Of a DNA stretch of 64,000 nt, positions 3,186 to 60,203 are shown piece by piece (positions within the stretch are counted from its first letter, which is position 1; every line of letters begins with the position of its first letter). The DNA is from Verrucomicrobiales bacterium. Lineage in GTDB: Bacteria > Verrucomicrobiota > Verrucomicrobiia > Verrucomicrobiales > Verrucomicrobiaceae. Below the pieces are notes generated by a model, which searched no databases, was not told the DNA's origin, and worked only from the letters and a program-made list of their open reading frames with translations. The position numbers were made by a program, and so were the translations under genes. Location: the NCBI GenBank assembly GCA_038230495.1, contig JBBRNC010000008.1, positions 30,378 to 94,377 of the forward strand, given 5' to 3'.

Positions 3186-4400
3186 TTAACGCTCCTGCAG
3201 CGCGGCAACTCCGGGGAGTTCCTTACCTTCGAGCAGTTCGAGGCTGGCACCGCCGCCAGTGGAGATGAAGGTCATTTTATCGGCGAGTTTTGCTTTCTTC
3301 ACGGCCTTCACGCTGTCACCACCACCGATGATGGTTTTGGCACTGCTATTGGCAGCCACGGCTTCGGCGATGTCAAAAGTGCCTTTCGAGCTTTCCTTGA
3401 TTTCAAATACGCCCATCGGCCCATTCCAGATGACTGTCTTGGCTTTGGCGATTTCGGCAGCGAATATTTTTACGGTCTCAGGGCCGATATCAACGCCTTC
3501 CCAACCGTCCGGGATGCTTCCACCGGGCGTGGTGAATTTCGTATTGCCGAGTTTCTTGGCATCAAAATCAAAAGCGTCGGTGATCATGGAGTCCACGGGA
3601 ATGAGCAGCTTCACGCCGCGTTCCTTGGCCTTGTCGAGCGCAGCCTGCGCAATGGGTTCCCACTCGGGCTTGTAGAGGCTCTTCCCGATCGTGATGCCAT
3701 TAACGAGCTTCATGAAAGTGTAAGCCATACCGCCACCGATGATGATGGTGTCGGCCTTTTCGAGCAGGCGATTGATGACACCGATCTTATCATTCACTTT
3801 TGCACCGCCAAGGATCACCACGAAAGGACGCTCGGGATTTTCCAGTTCGTCATGCAGCCAGGTCAATTCCTTCTCCATTAACAAACCGGAAACAGCAGGT
3901 AAATAGGCTGCAACACCCGCAGTCGAACTGTGCGCGCGATGCGCGGAGCCGAAGGCGTCGTTCACATAAATTTCCGCGAGGTCAGCCATCTGCTCGGCGA
4001 GTTCCGCGTCGTTCTTTTCTTCGCCTGCGTGGAAACGCACATTCTCTAGCAGCAGCACACCGCCATTGCCCAAAGCAATCGCCTTGGCCTTAGCATCGGC
4101 GCCGATGCAATCATCCGCGAAATCCACAGGACGGCCCAACATTTCGCTGAGACAAGCCGCGACGGGCTTGAGTGATTGCTTAGGATCGCGCTGGCCTTTC
4201 GGACGGCCAAGATGGCTGCAAAGAATCAGCTTCGCGCCCTGCTCGATGAGGTAATTCAACGTGGGCAGTGTTTCCTTGATGCGGGTGTCATCGGTGATGA
4301 CCATCGTGCCGTTCTGGTCGTCGAGGGGCACGTTGAAATCCACGCGGACGAGGCAGCGCTTGCCGCTCACATCAATGTCACGAATGCTTTTTTTTGCCAT
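3186..4400 (-). CDS. pgk: Phosphoglycerate kinase
   Basis: RVDFNVP N-terminal motif, 404 aa, canonical PGK length and conserved blocks. Confidence 0.95.
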
Positions 4401-5599: not shown

Positions 5600-5685
5600 T
5601 CAACCGGTGAATACCCCCTCTGAAAGCAAGCCTCGGGCCATTCTGACACATTACGTGGCTGTCCATGCCGCGACTGCCTATTGAG

Positions 5686-5726
5686 GGGCAAAAAAGTGGC
5701 CCGGCGGACTCCCATCCGCCGGGCCT
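5686..5726 (-). terminator. Rho-independent terminator downstream of the men operon
   Basis: Minus strand reads GGCCCGGCGGATGGGAGTCCGCCGGGCC followed by ACTTTTTTGCCCC; lies 3' of menE and upstream of the gap promoter region. Confidence 0.65.
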
Positions 5727-5959
5727 TAGGCATCTACCTCAACACATGTTCCGGTCACCCGGAACTTAATTTACAACAACCAATCACTCTTAATTTGCAG
5801 CGCGGCGTGTTAACCGCACAACGCTGTATTAGGTTAGAATCCTTACTCGATCTTCTGTTCAAAATTGTTGAACTTTTTTTATATTCCCGCCCAAGCCCCT
5901 AAATACCCCCTAAAATCGAGCCTTTCTGGACGGCTTTTTGACGGAAATTATAGAAATTT

Positions 5960-7099
5960 TTAGGCGCTCAAGAACTTTCTTATCACCTCGCGGTCCAACT
6001 TGCCCAGTGCGCTCCGTGGAATTTTTGGCACAACGGCACTTTCCTCGATTTCCTCTATTCCAGCACTTAGGATATTGAACCGCTCCCGCAGTTCTTCGAG
6101 TTCCAGCGCACTTAACTCCCCAACCAGCACCAGTTTGCTTCCCCTCCGAGCATCGGGCAAGGCACAGACGGCGACACAATGCGGCACGTCAGTGAGCGAT
6201 TCCAATCGTGATTGCAATACCTCTATATTAACCAGCTCGCCCATGACCTTTACCAATGAAGATTCACGCGCGAGGAAATTTAAGCTGCGTCGAATCCCTC
6301 GATCTCTGATGTCCACATGATCGCGCGTGAGCAGTCCCCATGACGAATCCATTTCCATCCAACGCCACACATTGCTTTCCTTGATTGCATAGCCGGAGGC
6401 CAGCGCCGGACCGCGCACCGACAGCCGCTGATCTTCATCGGTCTGCAAATCCCAGATCGGCAGCACTTCCAAAACATCCGGATCAAACTCGCGCCGCAGA
6501 CCCTCCAGCGAACTAGTCGCAATTTGTGAAGCCGTCTCCGTCATGCCGTAACTTTGCAGCACTGGCCAGCCAAGCTGCCTCGCTTCATTCCCGATTCCAC
6601 GGTTCAGGCCCGCACCACCCACCACGACAGCTCGTAGCGATAATGGCGCAATAATTTTCGCCTGCACGAGATCAAATACCTGCGTCGGCACCAACGATGT
6701 CAGTGTGATTTTTTCCTCCGCACAGTTCTTCGCAAACTTCACCGCATCCCATTTCCCGCTCATCTGAACAAACGACGCGCCGCTCGCGAAGCATCGCGCC
6801 AAGATGGAAAATCCGCCGACATGATGCAGCGGCAACGCAATGAGCCAGCGATCTCGCGAAGATGCTTCCAGATGCGCGTTCACCGCCTGCGCTGAAGCCA
6901 GCATCGCAGCACGCGACAGTCCGCACCATTTGGGCGCACCCTCGCTGCCGCTGGTTTGAAAAAAAATCAGGCTACGTGTGGCATCACTGCTTGCTGCAAA
7001 CTCAGCCAGACCAGCGGCATCACCCGCTCGATGCGGATTTACAGCGACATTAAAATCGCTGCCGCGCCAGAAGACTTCATTATCAAAAGCGGATGTCAT
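5960..7099 (-). CDS. menE: Short AMP-binding acyl-CoA synthetase, probable o-succinylbenzoate-CoA ligase
   Basis: TSGSEGAPK adenylation P-loop motif, YGMTE block; 379 aa; first gene of a menE-menC-menA-menB arrangement. Confidence 0.6.
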   Translation of the reverse strand: MTSAFDNEVFWRGSDFNVAVNPHRAGDAAGLAEFAASSDATRSLIFFQTSGSEGAPKWCGLSRAAMLASAQAVNAHLEASSRDRWLIALPLHHVGGFSILARCFASGASFVQMSGKWDAVKFAKNCAEEKITLTSLVPTQVFDLVQAKIIAPLSLRAVVVGGAGLNRGIGNEARQLGWPVLQSYGMTETASQIATSSLEGLRREFDPDVLEVLPIWDLQTDEDQRLSVRGPALASGYAIKESNVWRWMEMDSSWGLLTRDHVDIRDRGIRRSLNFLARESSLVKVMGELVNIEVLQSRLESLTDVPHCVAVCALPDARRGSKLVLVGELSALELEELRERFNILSAGIEEIEESAVVPKIPRSALGKLDREVIRKFLSA

Positions 7100-7192
7100 C
7101 GCAAATCCGTAGCAGCCGACGTGAGGAGGCTCAAACTTAATCGCCTAGCACTTTACAACACCGCTGAAAACAGAGCCTCCTTACGTCGGCTG

Positions 7193-8197
7193 CTACAAAG
7201 TGCACCAAGGAAGATTTGACAGCACATCATCAAATCCAAGCCCGGTGCCGTTGCGATCCACTTGCAGCTTCCCGCCATGCGAACTCAATCGCTCGAAGAA
7301 CGCATCTTTCTCAAACAGATGCTCCGTGCACAGACCGCACAAATCCATCCGCGCCCCAAATTCACGCCAAGCCAGCGCGGCTTCATACGCGGCGAAACTT
7401 TGTCCAATGGCGTGATCCATTGCGGAGGTAATCACGATGCGCGCATTTGCCGGAATCCCAGCCATCGTGCTGCGCCACTCGCGCCGACCCGGCTTGAGCA
7501 CGGCGACTTCATAGCCCCACTGAGTCGAACGCGCATCATCCGTTCGCATCAATCCTTTGTCACACGCGAGCCGAACGCCAAACTTTGTCTGAGCTGCGCT
7601 CCAAGCCGCCGCATCATACGGAAATGGATCCTCGATGAAATCAATCCGCTCGCGCACCCGGTCAGACATAGCGCCCATGAAGTCCGTGAATCGCGATTCA
7701 GTGAGGCACGAATTAAAATCAACGCGCAGCTTCAACTGAGCGTTACCCGAGAGCGCGACCAGCGTCTCTAATACATTGAGCGTCTTCTCGATTTCAGGAG
7801 ACCCCTTAGTCTTGATGGCCAGCCAGCCTTCTTGAATGACCCGCTGCATTTGAGGTTCAAGCGCCTGATTCTGATCGAGCGAAAAATGCGAGGGCGGAAT
7901 CTCCAATCCCGCAAACAAACTCACCCCGCGTCTCCGCGCCTCACCGTCCACTGCCGCCATGCGCAAGGCACGCTCGATGACTTTCGACGTGCCGCCGTCG
8001 CGCAGATTATTTAATTGTTCATCAATAGGCGCGTCACCGAACTCCGGCCACGGATGCAAGCAGCCGATGCCATCATCCACTTTGATTAGAGCACCATGAA
8101 ATTCACGACGCTGAGACACGGCATTGAGCGAGCCGCTGGAGCGAAGAACGTAAGGCTGGAATTGAACGGCGGACACGTTGAAAACTAGATAAGGCAA
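7193..8197 (-). CDS. menC: o-Succinylbenzoate synthase (enolase superfamily)
   Basis: Enolase-superfamily architecture (KLRVDFN, IEDP blocks), 334 aa, flanked by menE and menA with a 13-bp overlap. Confidence 0.65.
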   Translation of the reverse strand: MPYLVFNVSAVQFQPYVLRSSGSLNAVSQRREFHGALIKVDDGIGCLHPWPEFGDAPIDEQLNNLRDGGTSKVIERALRMAAVDGEARRRGVSLFAGLEIPPSHFSLDQNQALEPQMQRVIQEGWLAIKTKGSPEIEKTLNVLETLVALSGNAQLKLRVDFNSCLTESRFTDFMGAMSDRVRERIDFIEDPFPYDAAAWSAAQTKFGVRLACDKGLMRTDDARSTQWGYEVAVLKPGRREWRSTMAGIPANARIVITSAMDHAIGQSFAAYEAALAWREFGARMDLCGLCTEHLFEKDAFFERLSSHGGKLQVDRNGTGLGFDDVLSNLPWCTL

Positions 8198-9099
8198 ATC
8201 GCCATCAAACTAAAGAGGATGGAGAATCCGAGAAGATGCGCGCCTGCCATAGCAAGATCACGATTACTATCCTTTGAGGGTTCGTTAACCCAGATGGAGT
8301 TCGTGATAACCATAGCGAACGGAAACATGATCCAAGGCAATCCCCAGACCAACCACTTATCGGGCCGCCAGTTCAGTTGCAGCAGATACGTCCCGATGAA
8401 AAGTGCAGTGATCTCAATTCGCGCAAATCGTTTTCCAAACCTCACCGCCAGCGTGCGCTTTCCCGTCTTCGTGTCTTCTTCAATATCTCGCAGGTTGTTG
8501 ATTGCGATAAGGATAGTGCTCAACATACCGATTTGAAGTCCCGCGATCACAGCCTCGAAGTGCCAGTGTCCGCTTTGCACAAAGGCTGAACCCGTAACTG
8601 CGATTAAGCCAAAAAAGAGCACCACGAAAAGTTCGCCGAGTCCGCGATACGCCAACGGCATTGGCCCGCCCGTATAGCCGTAGCAGAACCAAAGCGATGG
8701 AATGCCGATGGCGATGATGGGCCAACCGCGATAGATAAACAAAGGCACGGCCAGCAACGTTGCGAGCGCGAGCACGCCCGCAGCGACCCACATGACCGTC
8801 TTCGCGGGCATCATGCCGGAGGCGGTGATGCGCAATGGCCCGAGGCGTTCCTTCGTATCACTGCCCTTCATGCCATCCACGGCGTCATTAAATAGATTGG
8901 TCGCGATTTGCAAACACATGCAACTACCGAGCGTCGCGAGTGCGAGCCAGATACTAAATTGCCCGCTCAATTTCCATCCAATTGTGATGCCGACCAGCAC
9001 TGGCGCGATGGCGGCTCCGAGCGTCTTCGGACGCGCAGCGAGGAGCCAGGGTTTGAGATTGGGCATCGCGCAAAGTAGGCGATGCCTCCGGCTTCGCAA
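8185..9099 (-). CDS. menA: 1,4-dihydroxy-2-naphthoate octaprenyltransferase (UbiA family)
   Basis: N-terminal LAARPKTL motif, NDxxDxxxD Asp-rich motif (NDAVDGMKGSD), 8-9 TM helices, 304 aa. Confidence 0.8.
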   Translation of the reverse strand: MRSRRHRLLCAMPNLKPWLLAARPKTLGAAIAPVLVGITIGWKLSGQFSIWLALATLGSCMCLQIATNLFNDAVDGMKGSDTKERLGPLRITASGMMPAKTVMWVAAGVLALATLLAVPLFIYRGWPIIAIGIPSLWFCYGYTGGPMPLAYRGLGELFVVLFFGLIAVTGSAFVQSGHWHFEAVIAGLQIGMLSTILIAINNLRDIEEDTKTGKRTLAVRFGKRFARIEITALFIGTYLLQLNWRPDKWLVWGLPWIMFPFAMVITNSIWVNEPSKDSNRDLAMAGAHLLGFSILFSLMAICLI

Positions 9100-9157
9100 T
9101 TCCTCAAAGAGGGACGCCCATCTTGCGAGGCTGAAGGCGCTCGCCTAATATAATGTC

Positions 9158-9889
9158 ATGGCCTACATCTTCGCACTCTTCGTCATCACGCTGGTCTCGC
9201 TCCTCATCATTCGCGTGGGCACGACAGCGCTGATGATGACAGGCCTGAGCTGGGACACGGCCAGCTTTCAGTCTTACTCCGCATTCTTCGGCGTGGGCTT
9301 CACGACGAAGGAGGCAGAATTAGTAATGAATCATCCTGTGCGGCGGCGGATCATCCGCGATCTCATTGTTGCAGGAAACGTCGGCCTGACCTCTGGCTTG
9401 GTGACGTTGATCGTTACCGTGTTGCAGGAAAAAACCTGGCTCAATCCGTTAACGGCCATCGGAGCAATCATTGGCACCATCATTATTCTGCTGCTGCTTT
9501 TCAAAATCGGCATCTTCCAACGGTTGCTCGATCATGTAATCCGAAGGGCGCTTGAGAAAGCTGGCATCGTGCGTGCGCTCGACTACGAATTACTGCTGCG
9601 CATCCAGTCGGGTTTCTGCGTATCCGAAATTGAAATCATGGCCGATACTTGTCTTTGCGGGAAGATGCTCAAAGAAACACGACCTGCTGAATGGGGCGTA
9701 TTAATCATGGCCATTTCACGGGATGGAATAGTGATGGATGGCATCCCTGGACCGAAGACCGTGGTGCAAGCAGGCGATGTGATTACCGCTTACGGTCACG
9801 AAACTGAATTAAAAAAACTGCTATCTAAGGAACTTCCACAGGACATCGATGTGCCACTGGCATATCAAAAAGATAGTCCAGTATCTTAG
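9158..9889 (+). CDS. Membrane protein with C-terminal TrkA-C (RCK_C) domain
   Basis: N-terminal TM helices; C-terminal EIEIMADTC...GDVITAYGHETELKKL resembles RCK_C; interrupts the men cluster on the opposite strand. Confidence 0.5.
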   Translation: MAYIFALFVITLVSLLIIRVGTTALMMTGLSWDTASFQSYSAFFGVGFTTKEAELVMNHPVRRRIIRDLIVAGNVGLTSGLVTLIVTVLQEKTWLNPLTAIGAIIGTIIILLLLFKIGIFQRLLDHVIRRALEKAGIVRALDYELLLRIQSGFCVSEIEIMADTCLCGKMLKETRPAEWGVLIMAISRDGIVMDGIPGPKTVVQAGDVITAYGHETELKKLLSKELPQDIDVPLAYQKDSPVS

Positions 9890-10727: not shown

Positions 10728-11918
10728 TTACTCGTAGCGGATTTCTTCAAACACGCCACCACCAAGCAATCGCTCACCATCATAAATCGCACAAATTTGT
10801 CCGGGCGTTAGGGCGCGTTGCGGCTCGTCAAAAATAAGCTCGGCGCACAGTTCGGTGCCGCGCTCGAACGGTTTATATTCCGCAGCGGCAGCGGGACTGC
10901 GATAGCGCGGCATAGCATCGAGCCTGCGCGGTTGCGTCAAGTCGGGGCCAGTGGTGGAGATGTTGTTGATCGTGCAACGACGCGCCCAGAGCAGCGGCGT
11001 GTCGGGACGTTCAATGGCAATGACGAGGGCATTCGACTCCATGCGTTTGGCGACAACGACATAGGCTTGCTTATAAAGATTGCTTGCCACGCCAAGTCCC
11101 TTGCGCTGGCCTAGCGTGTAGAGATGCAGGCCGCGATGTTCGCCGAGAACCTTGCCTGAAAGATCAACAATGGGGCCGGGCTTGTCCGGCACGAAGGTGC
11201 GCAGGAAATCTTCCATCTTCACTTCACCGATGAAGCAGATGCCTTGGCTATCTTTCTTCTCGGCTGTCTTCAATCCAAACTCTCTCGCGAGTTCACGCAG
11301 CTCCGGCTTCAACAGATGCCCTATGGGAAAGCGCGCGATCTCCACCTGCTCGGGCCGCATCATGGCGAGAAAGTATGTCTGGTCTTTGTTGGGATCAGCG
11401 CCCTTAAGAACTTCTGAATACGAACATTGAACATTGAACATTGAACTCTGAACATTGAGACTCGCAGCAACGCGTTCCGATTTCGGATTTGCCTCATTCA
11501 ATGTTGAATGTTCGACGTTCAATGTTCGATGTTCGACGCGCCTCGCATAGTGTCCGGTCGCGATGGCATCGAAGCCGTTGTCCCGCGCCCATTCCCAGAG
11601 CACGCCGAATTTCATCTCGCGATTGCACATCACATCAGGATTGGGCGTGATGCCTTGCGTGTAGCCTTCGAGAAGATATTTCACGACTTTCTCGCGATAC
11701 TCCTTCATCAGGTTCACGACGCGGAACTCAATACCGAGCTTGTCCGCGACAGCTCGTGCATCCTCGATGTCCTCTTGCCACGGGCAATGGCCAATGATGT
11801 TCTCTTCATTGATCCAGTTCTTCATGTAAGCACCAGACACGTCATATCCCTCGCGGACCAACAGCGCGGCGGCCACGCTGCTGTCCACGCCTCCGGACAT
11901 GGCGACGAGAATTTTCAT
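10728..11918 (-). CDS. mnmA: tRNA 2-thiouridine(34) synthase MnmA, carrying an in-frame ~34-aa insertion
   Basis: [19 protein letters not shown]-loop, DQSYFL-like block (NKDQTYFL), GICFIGE block; 396 aa versus about 360 typical. Confidence 0.9.
11421..11535. repeat. Imperfect ~115-bp palindromic element of tandem GAACATT heptamers, inside mnmA
   Basis: Left arm CGAACATTGAACATTGAACATTGAACTCTGAACATTGAG and right arm CTCATTCAATGTTGAATGTTCGACGTTCAATGTTCGATGTTCG are about 85% reverse-complementary; central TCCGATTTCGGA hairpin. Confidence 0.8.
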
Positions 11919-28743: not shown

Positions 28744-29523
28744 ATGCTTGCCAAGGCTCCAATCTCCACTCAAATCTCAATCCTTATGTTCGTTCGCACA
28801 TTGTTAGTCCTATCAGTCGCCGTTACCATGCCGTTCCAGTTGAATGCGCAGAACGCATCCGCAAAAAAAGGCTGGGGAGGTGATCCGGCCTCGGCCACCA
28901 AACTTAAGGCGCACTGGCATTACAATTGGTGGACAAACGGCAAATCAAGTCACGGCTTGGAATTTGTCCCGATGGTAAAAGGAAAAAAACAAGTGAACGA
29001 CACGGTGCTCAAAGCTATCAAGAGCAATGGCGCGAAAGTCATCCTCTGCTTGAACGAACCGGAACGCGCCTCGCAAGGCGACACCACTGTTGAAGAAGCC
29101 CTCAATCTCTGGCCAAAGCTTATGAAGACTGGCCTGCGCCTCGGAAGTCCCGCGCCCTCATCCGATGCTGCTGGTATGGCTTGGCTGGATACTTTTATGC
29201 AGGGTGTCGAGAAGAAGAAACTGCGAGTCGATTTCATCGCCCTACACTGGTATCGCAGTTCCGATCCCGACAAGTTTGAGGAATTTTTAAAAGAGATTCA
29301 CGACAAATATAAGCGCCCCATTTGGGTTACAGAGTTCAATTCCCAATACTCCAAAGGAGACCGTGACCAATTTGCCGCTCAGGCCTTCAAAATTTGTGAC
29401 CGCCTCGATTTCGTTGAACGCTACAGTTACTTCACCACCAAACCCGGCGAACCCGGCAGCTTGTGGAAAGATGGCGGACACAAGGAACTCACTCCGCTCG
29501 GTAAGGACTACACATCCCATTGA
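28744..29523 (+). CDS. Secreted glycoside hydrolase, GH128-like (Glyco_hydro_cc)
   Basis: Signal peptide; conserved LCLNEPE (catalytic Glu) and VTEFN (nucleophile Glu) blocks typical of the GH128/Glyco_hydro_cc fold. Confidence 0.65.
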   Translation: MLAKAPISTQISILMFVRTLLVLSVAVTMPFQLNAQNASAKKGWGGDPASATKLKAHWHYNWWTNGKSSHGLEFVPMVKGKKQVNDTVLKAIKSNGAKVILCLNEPERASQGDTTVEEALNLWPKLMKTGLRLGSPAPSSDAAGMAWLDTFMQGVEKKKLRVDFIALHWYRSSDPDKFEEFLKEIHDKYKRPIWVTEFNSQYSKGDRDQFAAQAFKICDRLDFVERYSYFTTKPGEPGSLWKDGGHKELTPLGKDYTSH

Positions 29524-29549
29524 GTGCTGGTTGTAACAGTGAAGATGAA

Positions 29550-30329
29550 ATGCTTGCCAATTCTCCAATTTCCACACAAATCCCGGCTCTTATGTTCCTT
29601 CGCCTATTCTTAGTTCTGACGATCGCTGTTATAACGCCATTTCAGTTGAATGCGGAAAACGCTTCTGCAAAAAAAGGCTGGGGAGGTGATCCTGCCACCG
29701 CCACCAAACTTAAGGCTCACTGGTATTACAACTGGTGGACAAACGGCAAATCAAGTCCTGATCTGGAATACGTTCCGATGGTAAAAGGGAAAAAACAAGT
29801 CAATGAGAAGACGCTCGATGCCATCAAGGCCAGCGGCGCAAAAGTTCTGCTCTGCTTGAACGAACCGGAACGTGACTCGCAAGGTGACACCACCGTTGAC
29901 GAAGCCCTCAATCTCTGGCCCAAGCTTATGAAGACCGGCCTGCGCCTCGGAAGTCCCGCGCCCTCTTCCGATCATGGCGGCATGGCATGGCTGGATCGCT
30001 TCATGCAGGGCGTTGCCAAAAGGAAGCTCCGGGTCGATTTCATCGCTTTGCACTGGTATCGCAGTTCCAACCCCAAGGAGTTTGAGGATTTTTTAAAAGA
30101 GATTCACCACAAGTATAAACGCCCCATCTGGGTTACTGAGTTCAATTCCCAATACTCCAAAGGGGACCGCGACCACTTTGCAGTGCAAGCCTTCAAAATC
30201 TGTGACCGCCTAGATTTCGTCGAGCGCTACAGTTACTTCAGCGCCAAACCCGGTCACCCCGGCAGCTTATTTAAAGAAGGCGGACACTCGGAATTGACGC
30301 ACCTCGGAGAAGACTACCTCCGGCATTAA
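29550..30329 (+). CDS. Secreted GH128-like glycoside hydrolase, tandem paralog of the preceding gene
   Basis: About 80% aa identity to 28744..29523 along the full length, same LCLNEPE/VTEFN motifs; ORF track start 29520 trimmed to the MLANSPIST Met. Confidence 0.65.
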   Translation: MLANSPISTQIPALMFLRLFLVLTIAVITPFQLNAENASAKKGWGGDPATATKLKAHWYYNWWTNGKSSPDLEYVPMVKGKKQVNEKTLDAIKASGAKVLLCLNEPERDSQGDTTVDEALNLWPKLMKTGLRLGSPAPSSDHGGMAWLDRFMQGVAKRKLRVDFIALHWYRSSNPKEFEDFLKEIHHKYKRPIWVTEFNSQYSKGDRDHFAVQAFKICDRLDFVERYSYFSAKPGHPGSLFKEGGHSELTHLGEDYLRH

Positions 30330-30404
30330 TGACATTGTTCGTCGATAGCTATCGACAGCAAGAATCGGGTGGGATCACGGCCCAGATGCGATTAGGATCG
30401 GTGG

Positions 30405-54506: not shown

Positions 54507-54575
54507 CCCGTGAATGAACAGCTTCCGGCTCATCCAAAAGTAACTCCATCTGGAGATCAGCGTCAGATAGTGTCT
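54507..54575. repeat. Degenerate ~66-bp copy of the pgsA 3' end (left boundary of the DUF433/DUF5615 cassette)
   Basis: ccgtgaatgaacagcttccggctcatccaaaagtaactccatctggagatcagcgtcagatagtg is about 75% identical to 55210..55275; minus-strand translation LTLISRWSYFWMSRKLFIHGDF versus the PgsA C-terminus LTLISGWSYFYKNRSLFLNGAG. Confidence 0.75.
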
Positions 54576-54642
54576 GTGCTGCTCCGCGACACGGTTCTGC
54601 GTGCGCCTTGACTCGTGATGCCAAAATAGCTAACTTCCCAAC

Positions 54643-54879
54643 ATGAATTACCGAGAGCGTATTATGATCGATCCACGCATTCGCAGCGGCAAGCCCTGCA
54701 TACGCGGCACACGGATCGCAGTGGCGGACGTTTTCGATTACCTCGGTGGCGGCATGACCATTGCCGAAGTGCTGGACGATTTTCCTGACCTGACCGCCGA
54801 CGACATTCAGGCGTGCTTTGCGTTTGCCGCTGACAGTGACCGCCGCCTAAACGTCGTTCCGCATGCAGTTGCTCTTTGA
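54643..54879 (+). CDS. DUF433-family putative antitoxin
   Basis: IDPRIRSGKPCIRGTRIAV...FPDLTADDIQACFAFAA is the DUF433 consensus; 78 aa. Confidence 0.7.
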   Translation: MNYRERIMIDPRIRSGKPCIRGTRIAVADVFDYLGGGMTIAEVLDDFPDLTADDIQACFAFAADSDRRLNVVPHAVAL

Positions 54880-55201
54880 TGAGAATCTTTCTCCCAAGCT
54901 GCCTCGCTTGGTGGAGATGCTTTTCCCCAACAGCACGCACGTCCGCGAGTGCGGGCTGCTTGGCCAACCCGACGAGGAAGTGTGGGAGTATGCGCGCACC
55001 CACGGCTTAGCCATCATCACGAAGGACTCCGACTTTCATCAGCGCAGTATGCTTTACGGCCATCCACCCAAAATCGTCTGGCTACGTATTGGCAACTGCA
55101 CCCGAGAGCAACTCGTCCAACTAATCACGGCACACGAACTGGTTATACACGCGCTCGACACAGACCCCTTCGAAGCTGTGCTCATCCTCTCCTCACCCTA
55201 A
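54863..55201 (+). CDS. DUF5615-family (PIN-like) putative toxin
   Basis: MQLLFDENLSPKL...GLLGQPDEEVWEYARTHGLAIITKDSDF matches the DUF5615 consensus; overlaps DUF433 by 17 nt. Confidence 0.7.
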   Translation: MQLLFDENLSPKLPRLVEMLFPNSTHVRECGLLGQPDEEVWEYARTHGLAIITKDSDFHQRSMLYGHPPKIVWLRIGNCTREQLVQLITAHELVIHALDTDPFEAVLILSSP

Positions 55202-55824
55202 CTCCCCGCTCCGTTGAGAAACAGTGAGCGGTTTTTATAAAAGTAACTCCAGCCGGAGATCAGTGTCAGTGAAACCATGATGGCGAGACAGGAGAAGCCG
55301 AACACGTGGGGCGAGAACCATTTCCACTCGAACGCATGGGCGGCCCATTGCATCATCGGTTCGCCACCGCCAGGGCCGGGTGGCTCTGCGCTGGCGCGCG
55401 CGGCCATGAAATAGACGACGGTGATCATCTGCCAGAGGGTTTTGTGCTTGCCGAGTTTCTCTGCGGCCAGCACCGCGCCCTTGTTCATCGCGAGCAGGCG
55501 AATGCCAGTCACGAAGAACTCGCGAGCTAACACCACGATCACCGTCCATGCGGGTAGTCGCAATGGCTCGCGCGGCTCAGCCGCCAGCATCACTAGGGCC
55601 GCAGCCATGAGAATCTTGTCTGCCAGTGGATCCATCAGCTTGCCGAAATCCGTGACGAGATTCTGCCGACGAGCGATCTCGCCATCGAGGTAATCCGTGA
55701 ATGATGCGACGAGGAATATGATCAACGCCCACGACACTCGGTTTTCTAGCGGGACATAAAACAACACGACGAACACCACCGTCAGCAGAAGACGGGCAAT
55801 GGTGAGTTTGTTAGGAAGATTCAT
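55198..55824 (-). CDS. pgsA: CDP-diacylglycerol--glycerol-3-phosphate 3-phosphatidyltransferase
   Basis: CDP-alcohol phosphatidyltransferase motif DYLDGEIARRQNLVTDFGKLMDPLADK; 208 aa. Confidence 0.85.
   Translation of the reverse strand: MNLPNKLTIARLLLTVVFVVLFYVPLENRVSWALIIFLVASFTDYLDGEIARRQNLVTDFGKLMDPLADKILMAAALVMLAAEPREPLRLPAWTVIVVLAREFFVTGIRLLAMNKGAVLAAEKLGKHKTLWQMITVVYFMAARASAEPPGPGGGEPMMQWAAHAFEWKWFSPHVFGFSCLAIMVSLTLISGWSYFYKNRSLFLNGAGS
55210..55278. repeat. Intact pgsA 3'-terminal segment, right copy of the direct repeat flanking the TA cassette
   Basis: See 54507..54575; this copy encodes the actual PgsA C-terminus. Confidence 0.75.
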
Positions 55825-56951: not shown

Positions 56952-58394
56952 ATGAGCAACAAAAGTGATTTCGGATTGATCGGCCTCGCCGTGATGGGAC
57001 AGAACCTAGTCTTGAACGTGGAAAGCCGCGGCTTCCAAGTCAGCGTCTTCAACCGCACCACCGCCACCACGGACGAGTTCATCGCCAAGCATCCCGGCAA
57101 GAAACTCGTCGGCTGCCACACGCTCGAAGAATTCGTTCAAAGCCTCGCCACGCCGCGCAAAATTCACATCATGGTCAAATCCACCGCCACGGCCGACAGT
57201 GATCGCGATGCCGTGGACGCAGTGATTGAACAGCTCATTCCGCTTCTCTCGAAAGACGACATCATCATTGACGGCGGTAACTCCTTCTACAAAACCACCG
57301 AACGTCGCGATGCCTATCTCACCGGCAAAGGACTGCGCTTCATCGGCGCAGGCGTGAGCGGTGGAGAAGAAGGCGCGCGCAAAGGCCCGAGCATCATGCC
57401 CGGCGGCCCTGCGAGCACTTGGGAAGTAATGAAGCCCATCTTTGAGAGCATCGCCGCGAAAGTGGACGGCGAGCCTTGCGTCATTCACATCGGCCCCGGC
57501 GGCGCTGGCCATTACGTGAAGATGATCCACAACGGCATTGAGTATGGCGACATGCAGCTCATCTGCGAGGCCTACAACATTTTCAAACACGCTGGCTTCA
57601 CCACCGACGAAATGGCCGCGATCTTCAACGAATGGAACGATGGCGACCTGCAAAGCTATCTGATCCAGATCACCGGAAAAGCGCTTGAACAAAAAGACCC
57701 TGAGACCGGCAAGCCCATCGTTGAACTCATCCAGGACAAGGCCGGACAAAAAGGCACAGGCCAATGGACACTGATCAATGCTGCGGAAAACGCCGTCGTC
57801 ATCAGCACCATCAACGCCGCCGTGGAAGCCCGCATTCTGTCGAGCCAGAAGAAACAACGCGTCGCCGCCAGCACTCAGCTCGCTGGCCCTGACGGCACCA
57901 TCAAGACCGATAAGGCTGCCCTTGTGAAAAAAGTCCACGACGCTCTCTACGCCTCGAAGATCATCAGCTACGCCCAAGGTCTCGACCTCATCAAAACGAT
58001 GGGGGAGAAAAAGAACTGGGGTCTCGACCTCGGACGCATCGCCGCCATCTGGCGCGGCGGCTGCATCATCCGCGCGAAATTCCTCAATCGCATCACCGAC
58101 GCCTATCGCAGCAATCCCGCGCTAGTGAACCTCATGCTCGATCCCTTCTTCAAAGACCTAATCAGCAAGACCCAGCAAAACTGGCGCGAGGTCGTCGCCC
58201 TCACCACTCTCAACGGCATCCCCGTCCCCGCATTCTCCGCGAGCCTCGGTTACTACGACAGCTACCGCGCCGAACGCCTCCCCGCGAATCTCCTCCAAGC
58301 CCAAAGAGATTTCTTCGGCGCTCATACCTACGAGCGCACCGACAAACCCGAAGGCCAGTTCTTCCATACGGAATGGCCGGAGGTGATTGGGTAG
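56952..58394 (+). CDS. gnd: 6-phosphogluconate dehydrogenase (decarboxylating)
   Basis: GLIGLAVMGQNLVLN Rossmann N-terminus, IIDGGNS, full-length about 480 aa; ORF track start 56898 trimmed. Confidence 0.9.
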   Translation: MSNKSDFGLIGLAVMGQNLVLNVESRGFQVSVFNRTTATTDEFIAKHPGKKLVGCHTLEEFVQSLATPRKIHIMVKSTATADSDRDAVDAVIEQLIPLLSKDDIIIDGGNSFYKTTERRDAYLTGKGLRFIGAGVSGGEEGARKGPSIMPGGPASTWEVMKPIFESIAAKVDGEPCVIHIGPGGAGHYVKMIHNGIEYGDMQLICEAYNIFKHAGFTTDEMAAIFNEWNDGDLQSYLIQITGKALEQKDPETGKPIVELIQDKAGQKGTGQWTLINAAENAVVISTINAAVEARILSSQKKQRVAASTQLAGPDGTIKTDKAALVKKVHDALYASKIISYAQGLDLIKTMGEKKNWGLDLGRIAAIWRGGCIIRAKFLNRITDAYRSNPALVNLMLDPFFKDLISKTQQNWREVVALTTLNGIPVPAFSASLGYYDSYRAERLPANLLQAQRDFFGAHTYERTDKPEGQFFHTEWPEVIG

Positions 58395-58397
58395 GCA
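58330..58397. repeat. gnd 3'-terminal segment, left copy of a ~66-bp direct repeat flanking the hicAB cassette
   Basis: cgagcgcaccgacaaacccgaaggccagttcttccatacggaatggccggaggtgattgggtaggc is about 90% identical to 58876..58942. Confidence 0.8.
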
Positions 58398-58416
58398 ACC
58401 ACAAAACGATCTTTTC

Positions 58417-58617
58417 ATGCCGCGAAAAATCCGCCAGCTTGCCCAAGACCTGATGGGTGCCGGTTTCGCTTTGCGATCTGGCGGCAAGGGATCCCACCGT
58501 AAATTCACACATCCCAATTTGGACGGATTTGCTTTGTTATCGGGAAAAGATGGCGAGGATGCAAAACACTATCAGGAAAAGCATGTTCGTGATAAGATAC
58601 GGGAGTCAAAATCATGA
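58417..58617 (+). CDS. hicA: HicA/YcfA-family type II toxin (mRNA interferase)
   Basis: MPRKIRQLAQDLMGAGF...GGKGSHRKFTHP...HYQEKHVRDKI fits the HicA family; about 66 aa; starts just after the gnd stop. Confidence 0.7.
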   Translation: MPRKIRQLAQDLMGAGFALRSGGKGSHRKFTHPNLDGFALLSGKDGEDAKHYQEKHVRDKIRESKS

Positions 58618-58856
58618 GAACAACCATTCAACAGCTCGCCGACAACTACGTGAAACTCGTGCGATGGAGTGACGAGGACAGTTGCTTTGTGGGCAGCATC
58701 CCGGACTTGTGTGGCGACTGCTGCCACGGTGATACACCTGGCGAGGTTTACGATCAGCTGGTGGAAATCGCCGAAGATTTGGTTGCCACAGCTCAGCGCG
58801 ATGGCCTTACTCTACCCATAGTCCGCACAAAAGTTATGATGGAAATGGCGTCTTGA
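58614..58856 (+). CDS. hicB: HicB-family (UPF0150) antitoxin
   Basis: YVKLVRWSDEDSCFVGSIPDLCGDCCHGDTPGEVYDQLVEIAEDLV fits HicB; ATGA 4-nt overlap with hicA. Confidence 0.7.
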   Translation: MRTTIQQLADNYVKLVRWSDEDSCFVGSIPDLCGDCCHGDTPGEVYDQLVEIAEDLVATAQRDGLTLPIVRTKVMMEMAS

Positions 58857-58867
58857 ATCTTTTAGCG

Positions 58868-58942
58868 CCTACACCACGAACGCACCGACAAACCCGAAGG
58901 CCAGATGTTCCACACGGAATGGCCAGAGGTGATTGGGTAGGC
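58868..58942. repeat. Degenerate copy of the gnd 3' end (right boundary of the hicAB cassette)
   Basis: cgaacgcaccgacaaacccgaaggccagatgttccacacggaatggccagaggtgattgggtaggc; would encode ERTDKPEGQMFHTEWPEVIG-stop versus the genuine ...GQFFHTEWPEVIG-stop. Confidence 0.8.
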
Positions 58943-58982
58943 CGCCGCTCAAGAGACGGACAGGAGCATCCGACTTGTCAGT

Positions 58983-59366
58983 TCACGTCTGAGGAAATAT
59001 TAAATCCTCGGCGTGATCCCCTACCTGATTCCTGAGTTCGTGAATGTAGGGAAAGCCCATGGCCATCCAGGTTTCATCCTGATCCAACGGCGATACAAAC
59101 TCATCAAGTCGATCCTCTTGTTCCGCGATTACGAGACGCGTCAGATGCTCGGATACCGCCGGAACAAGCCTTTCAAGAAATCGACCGAAAGCCGGTTGAT
59201 CTAAAAATTCAAATGCAGCCGTCGTCATCCGAAGCATTTTTTCAGAATCCGCGACAATGTCAGGTCCGTCCAGCAGCACGGCAGCTTGAAGACCTTGGGA
59301 TTGCTGAAGAATCTCGAATCTCGTGACCAACATCATGACCCGCAGGCGCTCTGGAAGAAGTTCCAA
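58983..59366 (-). CDS. HEPN-domain protein (Rx4-6H motif)
   Basis: ELRNQVGDH matches the HEPN R-x4-6-H motif; all-helical 127-aa protein. Confidence 0.45.
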   Translation of the reverse strand: MELLPERLRVMMLVTRFEILQQSQGLQAAVLLDGPDIVADSEKMLRMTTAAFEFLDQPAFGRFLERLVPAVSEHLTRLVIAEQEDRLDEFVSPLDQDETWMAMGFPYIHELRNQVGDHAEDLIFPQT

Positions 59367-59434
59367 CGCCTTGAACTCCTTTTGATGCGACTAAAGAAAC
59401 TCAGCGGCCTTTTTCGTGGAAACCACCCATCACC

Positions 59435-59650
59435 TTGGTTATCCTCTTGCCAATGGCTTCCGACCTCACTCCTGAATATATCGCCACGCTGCGTCGCATG
59501 ACGGGTGCACAAAAGCTGCGCACAGCTTTCGGACTCTACTGGTCCGCGCGGAAGCTGAAAGCGGCTCGCTTGCGGGAGCAGCACCCCGAATGGAGCGAGG
59601 ACAGGGTGCAGCAGCGCGTGAAGGAAATTTTCAAACATGCCGTTACCTGA
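59435..59650 (+). CDS. Small hypothetical protein, upstream partner of the nucleotidyltransferase
   Basis: 71-aa ORF (possibly starting at MASDLTPEY) overlapping the next gene by 14 nt. Confidence 0.3.
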   Translation: MVILLPMASDLTPEYIATLRRMTGAQKLRTAFGLYWSARKLKAARLREQHPEWSEDRVQQRVKEIFKHAVT

Positions 59651-60203
59651 GCCATTTCTCATATTCACCCGGAAGCTCAATGAACTGGGCCTTCGCTACA
59701 TGGTGAGCGGCAGCGTCGCAGCGATCTACTACGGCGAGCCCCGCATGACCAATGACGTGGATATCATCGTCTTTCTCAAGCGCGAAGATGCAGTCCGCAT
59801 TGAACAAGCATTCCCTGCTGACGAGTTCTATTGCCCACCACAAGAAGTCATACAGATCGAACTGTCACGCCCGCAACGCGGTCATTTCAACCTGATCCAT
59901 CACGATACCGGATTCAAGGCCGACATCTACCTCACAGGTCACGACAAACTGCATGAATGGGGTCTCGCCCATGCCCGCACCGCAGACCTTGAAGGCGACT
60001 ACGTAATCTTCGCCCCACCGGAATATGTTATCATCAGGAAGCTCCAGTTTTACCGCGAAGGAGACGCAGCGAAACATCTGCGTGACATCAGCCGGATGTT
60101 GTCGAGCCTGGGTGATGAATGGGATCACCAGCCATTGATCGAACTCATTCAGCAGCATGGTCTGGAACATGAGTGGCAGAGCGCACTGAAGTTCAGTGAT
60201 TAA
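59637..60203 (+). CDS. Minimal nucleotidyltransferase (MNT)-fold protein
   Basis: GSVAAIYYGEPRMTNDVDIIV carries the GS...DxD signature of the pol-beta-type nucleotidyltransferase fold; 188 aa. Confidence 0.55.
   Translation: MPLPEPFLIFTRKLNELGLRYMVSGSVAAIYYGEPRMTNDVDIIVFLKREDAVRIEQAFPADEFYCPPQEVIQIELSRPQRGHFNLIHHDTGFKADIYLTGHDKLHEWGLAHARTADLEGDYVIFAPPEYVIIRKLQFYREGDAAKHLRDISRMLSSLGDEWDHQPLIELIQQHGLEHEWQSALKFSD

Follow-up and report, generated by a model that had tools for sequence, protein, structure and literature searches.

Evidence for a hicA-hicB insertion bounded by a duplicated gnd terminus in a Prosthecobacter-like verrucomicrobium

The 64,000-nucleotide stretch of DNA analysed here (the window; positions 30,378 to 94,377 of the forward strand of contig JBBRNC010000008.1, Verrucomicrobiales bacterium assembly GCA_038230495.1) encodes a hicA-hicB toxin-antitoxin (TA) pair immediately behind gnd, the gene for 6-phosphogluconate dehydrogenase. 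The evidence supports the view that this pair was inserted where gnd ends, that a second copy of the gnd terminus forms its far boundary, and that gnd itself was kept intact. The initial annotation of the window had described such a cassette, and both the sequence features and the alignments bear it out. The features of the locus are as follows:

56952..58394, plus strand: gnd, 6-phosphogluconate dehydrogenase, from Pfam and amino acid identity to relatives
58308..58396, plus strand: R1, the proximal repeat copy, comprising the last ~85 nt of functional gnd with the stop codon and 2 nt more, from alignment and profile
58397..58416, plus strand: leader from R1 to hicA, short and without a terminator-like or sigma-70-like site
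58417..58617, plus strand: hicA toxin gene, 66 amino acids (aa), with the G-S-H motif (His27)
58614..58856, plus strand: hicB antitoxin gene, 80 aa, N-terminal domain only, without a DNA-binding domain
58855..58942, plus strand: R2, the distal gnd-terminus relic, with a 1-nt deletion and no start codon, running into ancestral downstream DNA

The functional gnd gene is intact, from its ATG at 56952 to its TAG stop at 58392-58394, and encodes a 480-aa product that matches the Pfam families 6PGD (E = 1e-125) and NAD_binding_2 (3.5e-46). This protein is 91-93% identical to those of Prosthecobacter and Verrucomicrobiaceae metagenome-assembled genomes (MAGs), which points to a Prosthecobacter-like verrucomicrobium. 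The gene continues unbroken into R1 and the cargo. The spacer between the gnd stop and the hicA ATG is 22 nt, and hicB lies directly downstream of hicA, the two overlapping by ATGA (58614-58617). hicA and hicB are the only genes between R1 and R2; the insertion unit therefore amounts to 546 bp, made up of one ~85-nt copy of the gnd terminus and hicA-hicB, with a cargo of 0.46 kb. The GC content of hicAB is 0.49-0.53, compared with 0.58 for gnd.

The cores of the two repeats (58330-58396 and 58876-58942) are identical at 62 of 67 positions (93%), including the TAG stop and the GC that follows it. Upstream of the R2 core, weaker homology with a 1-nt deletion extends back to about 58855-58861, at or after the hicB stop, and a nhmmer profile built from 160 gnd tails aligned the relic over tail positions -86 to -1. 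The Smith-Waterman score of R1 against R2 is 111, whereas 300 shuffles gave a mean of 20.9 (sd 2.2) and a maximum of 29; chance similarity is thus excluded. In translation, R2 reads ..ERTDKPEGQMFHTEWPEVIG*, identical at 19 of 21 residues to positions 460-480 of the gnd product. The initial annotation had placed a ~66-bp repeat of ~90% identity, stop codon included, ~15 nt past the hicB stop; pairwise alignment of the gnd end with the downstream copy upholds the similarity and the stop codon, but the strongly similar part begins 19 nt past the hicB stop and the whole relic about 0-5 nt past it. Likewise, hicA does start close behind the gnd stop, though after 22 nt and not the 23 first counted, and the ATGA overlap was correctly described.

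The distal copy could also have been the end of a longer gnd pseudogene paralogue, for which the similarity itself speaks and nothing beyond it. This explanation is refuted. A tblastn search of gnd against the whole window returned a single extra match, residues 460-480 at 58875-58937; only the last ~85 nt of gnd are present, and the hicB coding sequence lies immediately upstream. Since the window holds no further gnd fragment, R2 is not the end of a longer pseudogene but, as initially proposed, a cassette boundary.

Related loci (designated by L numbers) identify the state before insertion. L011, L121, L007, L008 and L126 share the order gnd, short spacer, intrinsic terminator (GGCGGCTGAGGAAACTCAGCCGCTTTTTTT) and a pair consisting of an Rv0078B-like gene and a nucleotidyltransferase (NTase) gene, and hicAB is absent from L011, L121 and L007. 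The window pair at 59435-60203 is orthologous to that of L011 (tblastn, 83% and 71% aa identity). An empty site was reconstructed from the window by removing one repeat copy together with hicAB, as well as 398 nt at 58998-59395 that hold an additional open reading frame (ORF), orf127. The reconstructed site aligns end to end with L011, L121 and L007 across the gnd tail, the spacer, both terminator halves and the start of the antitoxin gene. Thus, the relic R2 is contiguous with ancestral downstream DNA, and orf127 is a separate insertion in the terminator loop. On these sequence comparisons, the gnd-spacer-terminator-Rv0078B/NTase order is the predicted empty-site state at genus level. The initial annotation had suggested looking for an empty site in related strains, and L011, L121 and L007, which lack hicAB, provide it at that level; no same-species empty site was found. 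The downstream features are as follows:

58943..58997, plus strand: ancestral gnd spacer and left terminator half (..TTCACGTCTGAGGAAA), from alignment with L011, L121 and L007
58998..59395, minus strand: orf127 insertion of ~398 nt (ORF 58983..59366), in the ancestral terminator loop
59396..59414, plus strand: right terminator half (GAAACTCAGCGGCCTTTTT), from the same alignment with L011, L121 and L007
59435..60203, plus strand: Rv0078B-like antitoxin and nucleotidyltransferase genes, TA-like, with a probable ATG at 59453, from Pfam, tblastn and alignment

The product of orf127 (127 aa) has no match in Pfam, PADLOC or NCBIfam. GAAA stands at each end of the orf127 insertion (58994-58997 and 59396-59399), where the loop in L011 and L121 is one GAAA.

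The cargo was assigned to the HicAB family from sequence and predicted structure. HicA scores 26.9 bits against the Pfam HicA_toxin family (E = 5.3e-6), just below the cut-off of 27, and is 60% identical to a Prosthecobacter protein (L092) with a recorded PF07927 hit, while its match to the structure 1WHZ is weak (E = 0.07). Its His27, in GGKGSHRKF, has the G-x-H context with a conserved catalytic histidine near residue 25. HicB reaches 21.6 bits against Pfam UPF0150, below the cut-off. An AlphaFold model of HicB built with 17 homologues (pLDDT 92.4) has three strands and a long helix, and the top Foldseek matches were TTHA0281 and the HicB proteins of Escherichia coli (6HPB), B. pseudomallei (6G1C) and Y. 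pestis (HicB3, 4P78), with prob 0.87-1.0 and TM 0.53-0.71; the E-values are weak because the domain is small. On this model, HicB has the predicted N-terminal partial RNase-H-like fold (beta-beta-beta-alpha). A sequence-only search of the PDB had returned Kv4 T1-domain proteins, which were rejected as spurious matches made through the CGDCC motif; the fold search decided the identity of HicB. Across the alignment of the window hicB family, a C-G-D-C-C-H motif is invariant and may form a metal or disulfide site.

Toxin-first order, overlapping genes, the G-S-H motif of HicA and the N-domain fold of HicB are all shared with HicAB type II TA systems. The window HicB differs in that the protein (80 aa) stops after the helix and lacks the C-terminal ribbon-helix-helix (RHH) or helix-turn-helix (HTH) DNA-binding domain, and its family differs in the invariant CGDCCH. 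Autoregulation is therefore doubtful. Some longer HicB homologues carry a PF01381 HTH domain, and the DNA-binding domain is not universal in the family. HicA would be an mRNA-cleaving toxin restrained by the N-domain of HicB. Promoter and terminator scans of the plus strand from gnd to the relic gave no signal, whether ahead of hicA or behind hicB. From the 22-nt spacer devoid of a terminator we infer that read-through from gnd would be the simplest route of hicAB transcription.

The gnd end looks like an insertion hotspot in related Verrucomicrobiaceae. A scan of 155 gnd loci with downstream sequence, taken from one genome per species and from metagenomes, yielded about nine further gnd-end duplications enclosing around 0.6-4.3 kb of cargo. 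With positions counted relative to the gnd stop codon, the left edges of the duplicated segments range from -274 to +11 and the repeats are about 40 to 300 nt long. The events are as follows:

L002, about -77..+89, insert 1.8 kb: SLATT_5 gene and a 166-aa ORF
L100 and L116 (one event), -78..+100, insert about 0.77 kb: DUF6585-like membrane ORF
L116, second relic, left edge at about -101 to -105, distance from the stop 3.2 kb: cargo not annotated
L101, -233..+78, insert 0.70 kb: Rv0078B-like and DUF6036 NTase genes
L131, -274..+2 with 98% identity, insert 4.3 kb: one 1400-aa homologue of TmtA (Tiamat), PADLOC 2e-67
L027 = L104, about -50..-9, insert 0.77 kb: DUF2204 NTase gene on the opposite strand
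L025 = L105, relic of about 12-30 nt found by eye, insert about 0.76 kb: NTase block
L052, +11..+54, intergenic, insert 0.62 kb: HicAB-like pair

The TmtA homologue of the Tiamat anti-phage system in L131 lies at 5650-9852, between the gnd-tail repeats. L116 has two serial relic gnd tails, at 1470-1563 and 3799-3900, behind a single gnd; the distal relic (93% identical to the functional tail) is better kept than the proximal one (82%), the opposite of simple stepwise accretion at the active tail. The Rv0078B-like/NTase pair occupies the same position behind the terminator in L011, L121, L007, L009, L010, L012 and L040 and thus appears to be an older resident of the hotspot. In two strain pairs (L101/L102 and L027/L106) the whole cassette is swapped between conserved flanks.

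Two of these loci tell which part of the structure is new. In L100, the relic and the DNA behind it are orthologous to the gnd tail of L025, the nearest relative, and to what follows that tail, whereas the functional tail of L100 is more different from L025; in L100, therefore, the import comprises the functional tail and the cargo. In L025, an imported block of gnd tail, spacer A, terminator and NTase genes is followed by the short relic and the native spacer B. The blocks imported into L025 and L100 thus came with a spacer and terminator type of their own. The orthologous relics of L100 and L116 are identical at 64 of 78 positions, compared with 75 of 78 for their functional tails, which indicates that relics evolve as neutral DNA and not as maintained sites.

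These data also bear on an explanation without transfer, in which the gnd end and its cargo were duplicated in tandem in situ and then partly deleted, or a metagenome assembly artefact joined strain variants. All examples do come from MAGs or metagenome contigs, and the repeats of L131 are nearly identical, as in a fresh in-genome duplication. Nevertheless, this explanation is very improbable. The differing spacers behind the functional end (A) and the relic (B) of L025 show that the flanking block was imported rather than locally duplicated, and the relic shared by L100 and L116 is orthologous and has diverged with the species. The pattern recurs in many unrelated samples and assemblers. In the window itself, R1 and R2 differ at 5 of 67 positions, which makes the assembly unambiguous, and the same structure occurs in a separate Logan contig (L081), although this probably derives from the same sample and its independence is limited.

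The reading that we prefer, at a probability of about 50%, is that incoming DNA, made up of a gnd end and its cargo, recombined with the chromosome inside the conserved terminus of gnd, and that the end already there was displaced. The source would be a related genome with hicAB directly behind its own gnd, and the gnd sequence would serve as the homology anchor. The second end would have joined the resident gnd some 80 nt ahead of its stop codon, either through homology-facilitated illegitimate recombination (HFIR, a term found in PMC6382021) with a linear fragment or by a single Campbell-type crossover of a circularised fragment. In either case the resident gnd tail would be pushed downstream and not replaced. 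As would be expected from homology-anchored acquisition, the cargo is continuous with the conserved anchor and the second junction is variable, with edges from -274 to +11. The gnd tail is highly conserved, with nucleotide identities of 80-93% within the family and still 79% to a Neisseria record, and would thus be an unusually good anchor. The R1/R2 repeats would favour precise RecA-mediated deletion, and a TA pair would counter-select deletion between them, so that survivors would be biased towards TA and defence cargo. If the repeats invite precise deletion and only addictive or strongly selected cargo persists, the kind of cargo found is explained. TA modules suppressed deletions between repeats in experiments on Pseudomonas plasmids (PMC6354349). 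The hicB homologues also speak for this reading: the closest (79%) lies on a 617-nt contig whose similarity to the window ends right after the hicB stop codon, and relatives of 60-63% identity occur behind glpK or in other contexts, with no flanking duplication.

Several points weigh against acquisition by homology. Genome and metagenome scans yielded neither a donor nor a same-species empty site, and no same-species gnd locus (best match 92-93% aa); an exact-protein look-up of the window gnd returned no record. The window alone does not tell which of R1 and R2 is the resident copy, because an insertion between repeats can be read in circularly permuted ways and because both tails occur as natural alleles (QFF and QMF) at about the same distance from relatives (summed identities to 45 relatives of 2477 and 2443 for the two tails, uninformative on polarity). 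The repeats of L131 are identical at 240 of 242 positions over -262..-21, yet differ at 5 of the last 20. The left edges of three events whose cargo is unrelated lie only 2-10 nt apart (~-77 to -86), a hint of a preferred site, and the first ~20 nt of these three relics are much more diverged than the remainder. In six events only 4-45 nt separate the end of the last cargo gene from the relic, less than random donor breakpoints would leave. Moreover, every example comes from a metagenome assembly.

The clustered edges, the diverged first ~20 nt and the tight cargo are what a trans-acting integrase with a core near -77 would be expected to produce. Under such site-specific integration, the cassette would be a non-autonomous or degenerate integrative or cis-mobilisable element with an attP that mimics the gnd terminus, R1 and R2 would be attL and attR, and the integrase would act in trans. 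The architecture is like that of insertions which an integrase makes in the 3' end of a gene, with the old terminus displaced as a pseudo-terminus; the three events with different cargo share their left edge while the right edge varies; the divergence of the first ~20 nt of their relics recalls a P-arm/core junction; the cargo is packed tightly against the repeats; and the two serial relics of L116 resemble tandem accretion at an att site. Even so, we regard this explanation as less likely than the first, though it keeps considerable weight. Other left edges lie at -30, -50, -105, -233, -274 and +11, and the clustering, beside a small inverted repeat, is not robustly significant (p = 0.016 to 0.22, depending on edge calling). 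The relics are not conserved as functional sites, and folding of R1 and R2 as single-stranded DNA, on either strand, gave no significant structure (z = -0.8 to -1.95).

Searches for the enzyme or its vehicle point the same way. A regular-expression scan for integrase and recombinase motifs in the inserts and in 4.5 kb downstream of gnd at about 150 loci found none. Among 104 ORF families from the same 4.5 kb, Pfam gave no recurrent recombinase in the 25 families listed, though a singleton with a modest E-value could escape. A degenerate IUPAC pattern of the gnd tail was absent from 2.9 million viral contigs, and blastn of the 651-nt region against plasmids and phages returned nothing relevant, the single match being the gnd tail of the Neisseria record (79%). 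Scanning the region for Rfam families and tRNA genes gave no relevant match nearby. As regards integron features, there is no attC-like structured site at the cassette end and no integrase in the inserts or the 4.5 kb downstream.

A further alternative is that R1-cargo-R2 is a self-propagating unit that spreads between species by double crossover, with the gnd body as one arm and the relic, pairing with the recipient gnd tail, as the other. This would explain a constant left edge inherited with the cassette, the decayed left part of the relic beside a well-matched right part refreshed by the recipient, and the contiguity of the relic with native downstream DNA; the gnd tail identities of 80-93% in the family and 79% to the Neisseria record would permit it. 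It is nonetheless improbable, as no unit of cargo and relic with the same edge was seen in two non-sister genomes: L100/L116, L027/L104 and L025/L105 fit vertical descent. L101 and L025 share their NTase cargo but not the edge of the relic, and different cargo at the same edge would need exact cargo replacement.

Gene-tail duplication outside gnd is rare. Among roughly 1300 ORF ends examined, it was found at pgsA (in the window) and at an esterase gene (in L005); the gnd end is thus strongly enriched, in loci that were chosen through gnd. The initial annotation had attributed the same architecture to a cassette at pgsA, and this holds: the repeat (54508-54566 against 55211-55269) is 73% identical, with a Smith-Waterman score of 47 against a shuffle maximum of 28, and LTLISRWSYFWMSRKLFIHG and LTLISGWSYFYKNRSLFLNG share 14 of 20 residues. 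The features of this sister case are as follows:

54508..55269, minus strand: pgsA sister case, with the relic pgsA tail at 54508-54566 and the functional pgsA tail at 55211-55269
54643-54879, in plus-strand order: DUF433 gene, between the pgsA tail copies, from Pfam
54863-55201, in plus-strand order: DUF5615/PIN gene, between the pgsA tail copies, its stop overlapping the pgsA stop

As the toxin stop overlaps the pgsA stop on the opposite strand, the last pgsA codons lie at the cassette junction. The DUF433/DUF5615-PIN pair is 73-80% identical across phyla, Gloeobacter included. L175 and L177 carry DUF433/DUF5615 pairs whose toxins are 75% and 78% identical to the window toxin, with no flanking duplication; the L175 pair lies after an Aminotran_5 gene, the L177 pair before one, and a gene for a TPR protein adjoins both. 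In L005, the last 51 nt of a SASA-type esterase gene (9488-9538) are repeated with 94% identity 1.6 kb downstream (11160-11210), and the repeat encloses two minus-strand ORFs.

Two other repeats were noted. A 300-nt repeat at 28.7-29.8 kb of the window was considered as a further cassette and rejected; it belongs to two tandem paralogues (28744-30329; 259 and 269 aa) with about 80% nucleotide identity over 300 nt, an ordinary tandem duplication. L048 has an ORF for a RAYT-like Y1 transposase just behind the gnd stop (7459-8304; ORF 7490..8299, minus strand; Pfam Y1_Tnp below the cut-off), at the position of the spacer and terminator in relatives. This ORF is flanked by 65-nt repeats of 98% identity that also match when inverted and may be REP-like.

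Most models of how chromosomal hotspots gain TA and defence genes rely on integrases, on transposases or on exchange across two conserved flanks. The gnd end is repeatedly hit by minimal cargo (HicAB, NTase TA pairs, SLATT, Tiamat) that carries no mobility gene, and the second gene end, which decays after each event, is a scar by which that event can be dated. If acquisition is homology-anchored, it would offer small defence islets a simple and general way across species wherever a gene end is conserved enough; the retention of TA cargo between direct repeats would be explained by addiction against deletion, and a duplicated gene tail would be a computational signature for such islets in any genome. 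If instead an integrase acts in trans, the gnd tail would be a previously unrecognised att site, used by a family of non-autonomous passengers. A broader proposal, doubtful as it is, would be that duplicated gene termini provide a recombinase-free route for TA and phage-defence islets into and between verrucomicrobial genomes, in which incoming DNA is targeted by homology to the nearly invariant last ~80-270 nt of gnd (occasionally of other genes such as pgsA or the esterase gene), the displaced copy serves either as a second, portable arm or as the substrate of reversible excision, and addictive cargo prevents collapse. Were it true, this mode of mobility would be distinct from integrases, transposases and integrons.

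Literature searches turned up no account of TA cassettes that lack an integrase and have duplicated gene termini as their boundaries, but parts of the arrangement are known from other systems. De Vries & Wackernagel (2002) and Prudhomme et al. (2002) reportedly described HFIR during transformation. Like the gnd cases, HFIR joins a foreign block continuous with a homologous anchor through a second, variable junction, gives short inserts (0.5-4 kb) and needs no element-encoded enzyme. Classical HFIR differs in that it usually deletes recipient DNA and leaves no duplicated anchor end, and the gnd cargo ends unusually tight to the relic. Complex class 1 integrons that contain ISCR1 reportedly have inserted DNA enclosed by two copies of the 3'-conserved segment (Toleman, Bennett & Walsh, 2006). 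There, a circular intermediate with part of the conserved segment integrates by homology, so that two partial copies of variable length flank the cargo. At gnd, however, no ISCR or rolling-circle element is present, and the repeated sequence comes from the end of a housekeeping gene on the chromosome.

Integron gene cassettes and chromosomal TA cassettes are likewise sub-kilobase, tight and largely promoterless, often carry TA pairs, have a repeat-like boundary and can form arrays (compare L116). They differ from the gnd inserts, where no attC-like site or IntI was found and where the boundary repeat is a copy of coding sequence that decays neutrally. In the minimal mobile elements of Neisseria and in defence or integration hotspots, small alternative cassettes beside a conserved gene are exchanged via flanking homology. 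The alternative cassettes at the same site in L027 and L106, and in L101 and L102, resemble these, but exchanges there do not duplicate the end of the flanking gene.

The architecture is that of the e14 element of E. coli, which has icd on one flank and icdC, a C-terminal pseudogene, on the other (PMC13626634). Recombination between the icd copies removes e14, according to PMC13626634, which cites Hill et al. 1989 on this point. e14 and phage 21 in icd share with the window cassette the insertion into the 3' end of a housekeeping dehydrogenase gene, the intact target gene and the second, non-functional C-terminal copy at the far boundary. As at icd, repeats of the target terminus beside an intact gene are present at gnd; unlike at icd, no recombinase was found in or next to the inserts at ~150 gnd loci, and the edges of the gnd repeats are variable. 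e14 is also about 15 kb long, with its own site-specific recombination system and a fixed att site, whereas the window insert is 0.46 kb and consists of a TA pair only. What is new here relative to e14/icd is thus the 0.46-kb size, the lack of a detected mobility gene, the variable edges and the family-wide recurrence at one gene end with TA and defence cargo; the architecture itself is classical.

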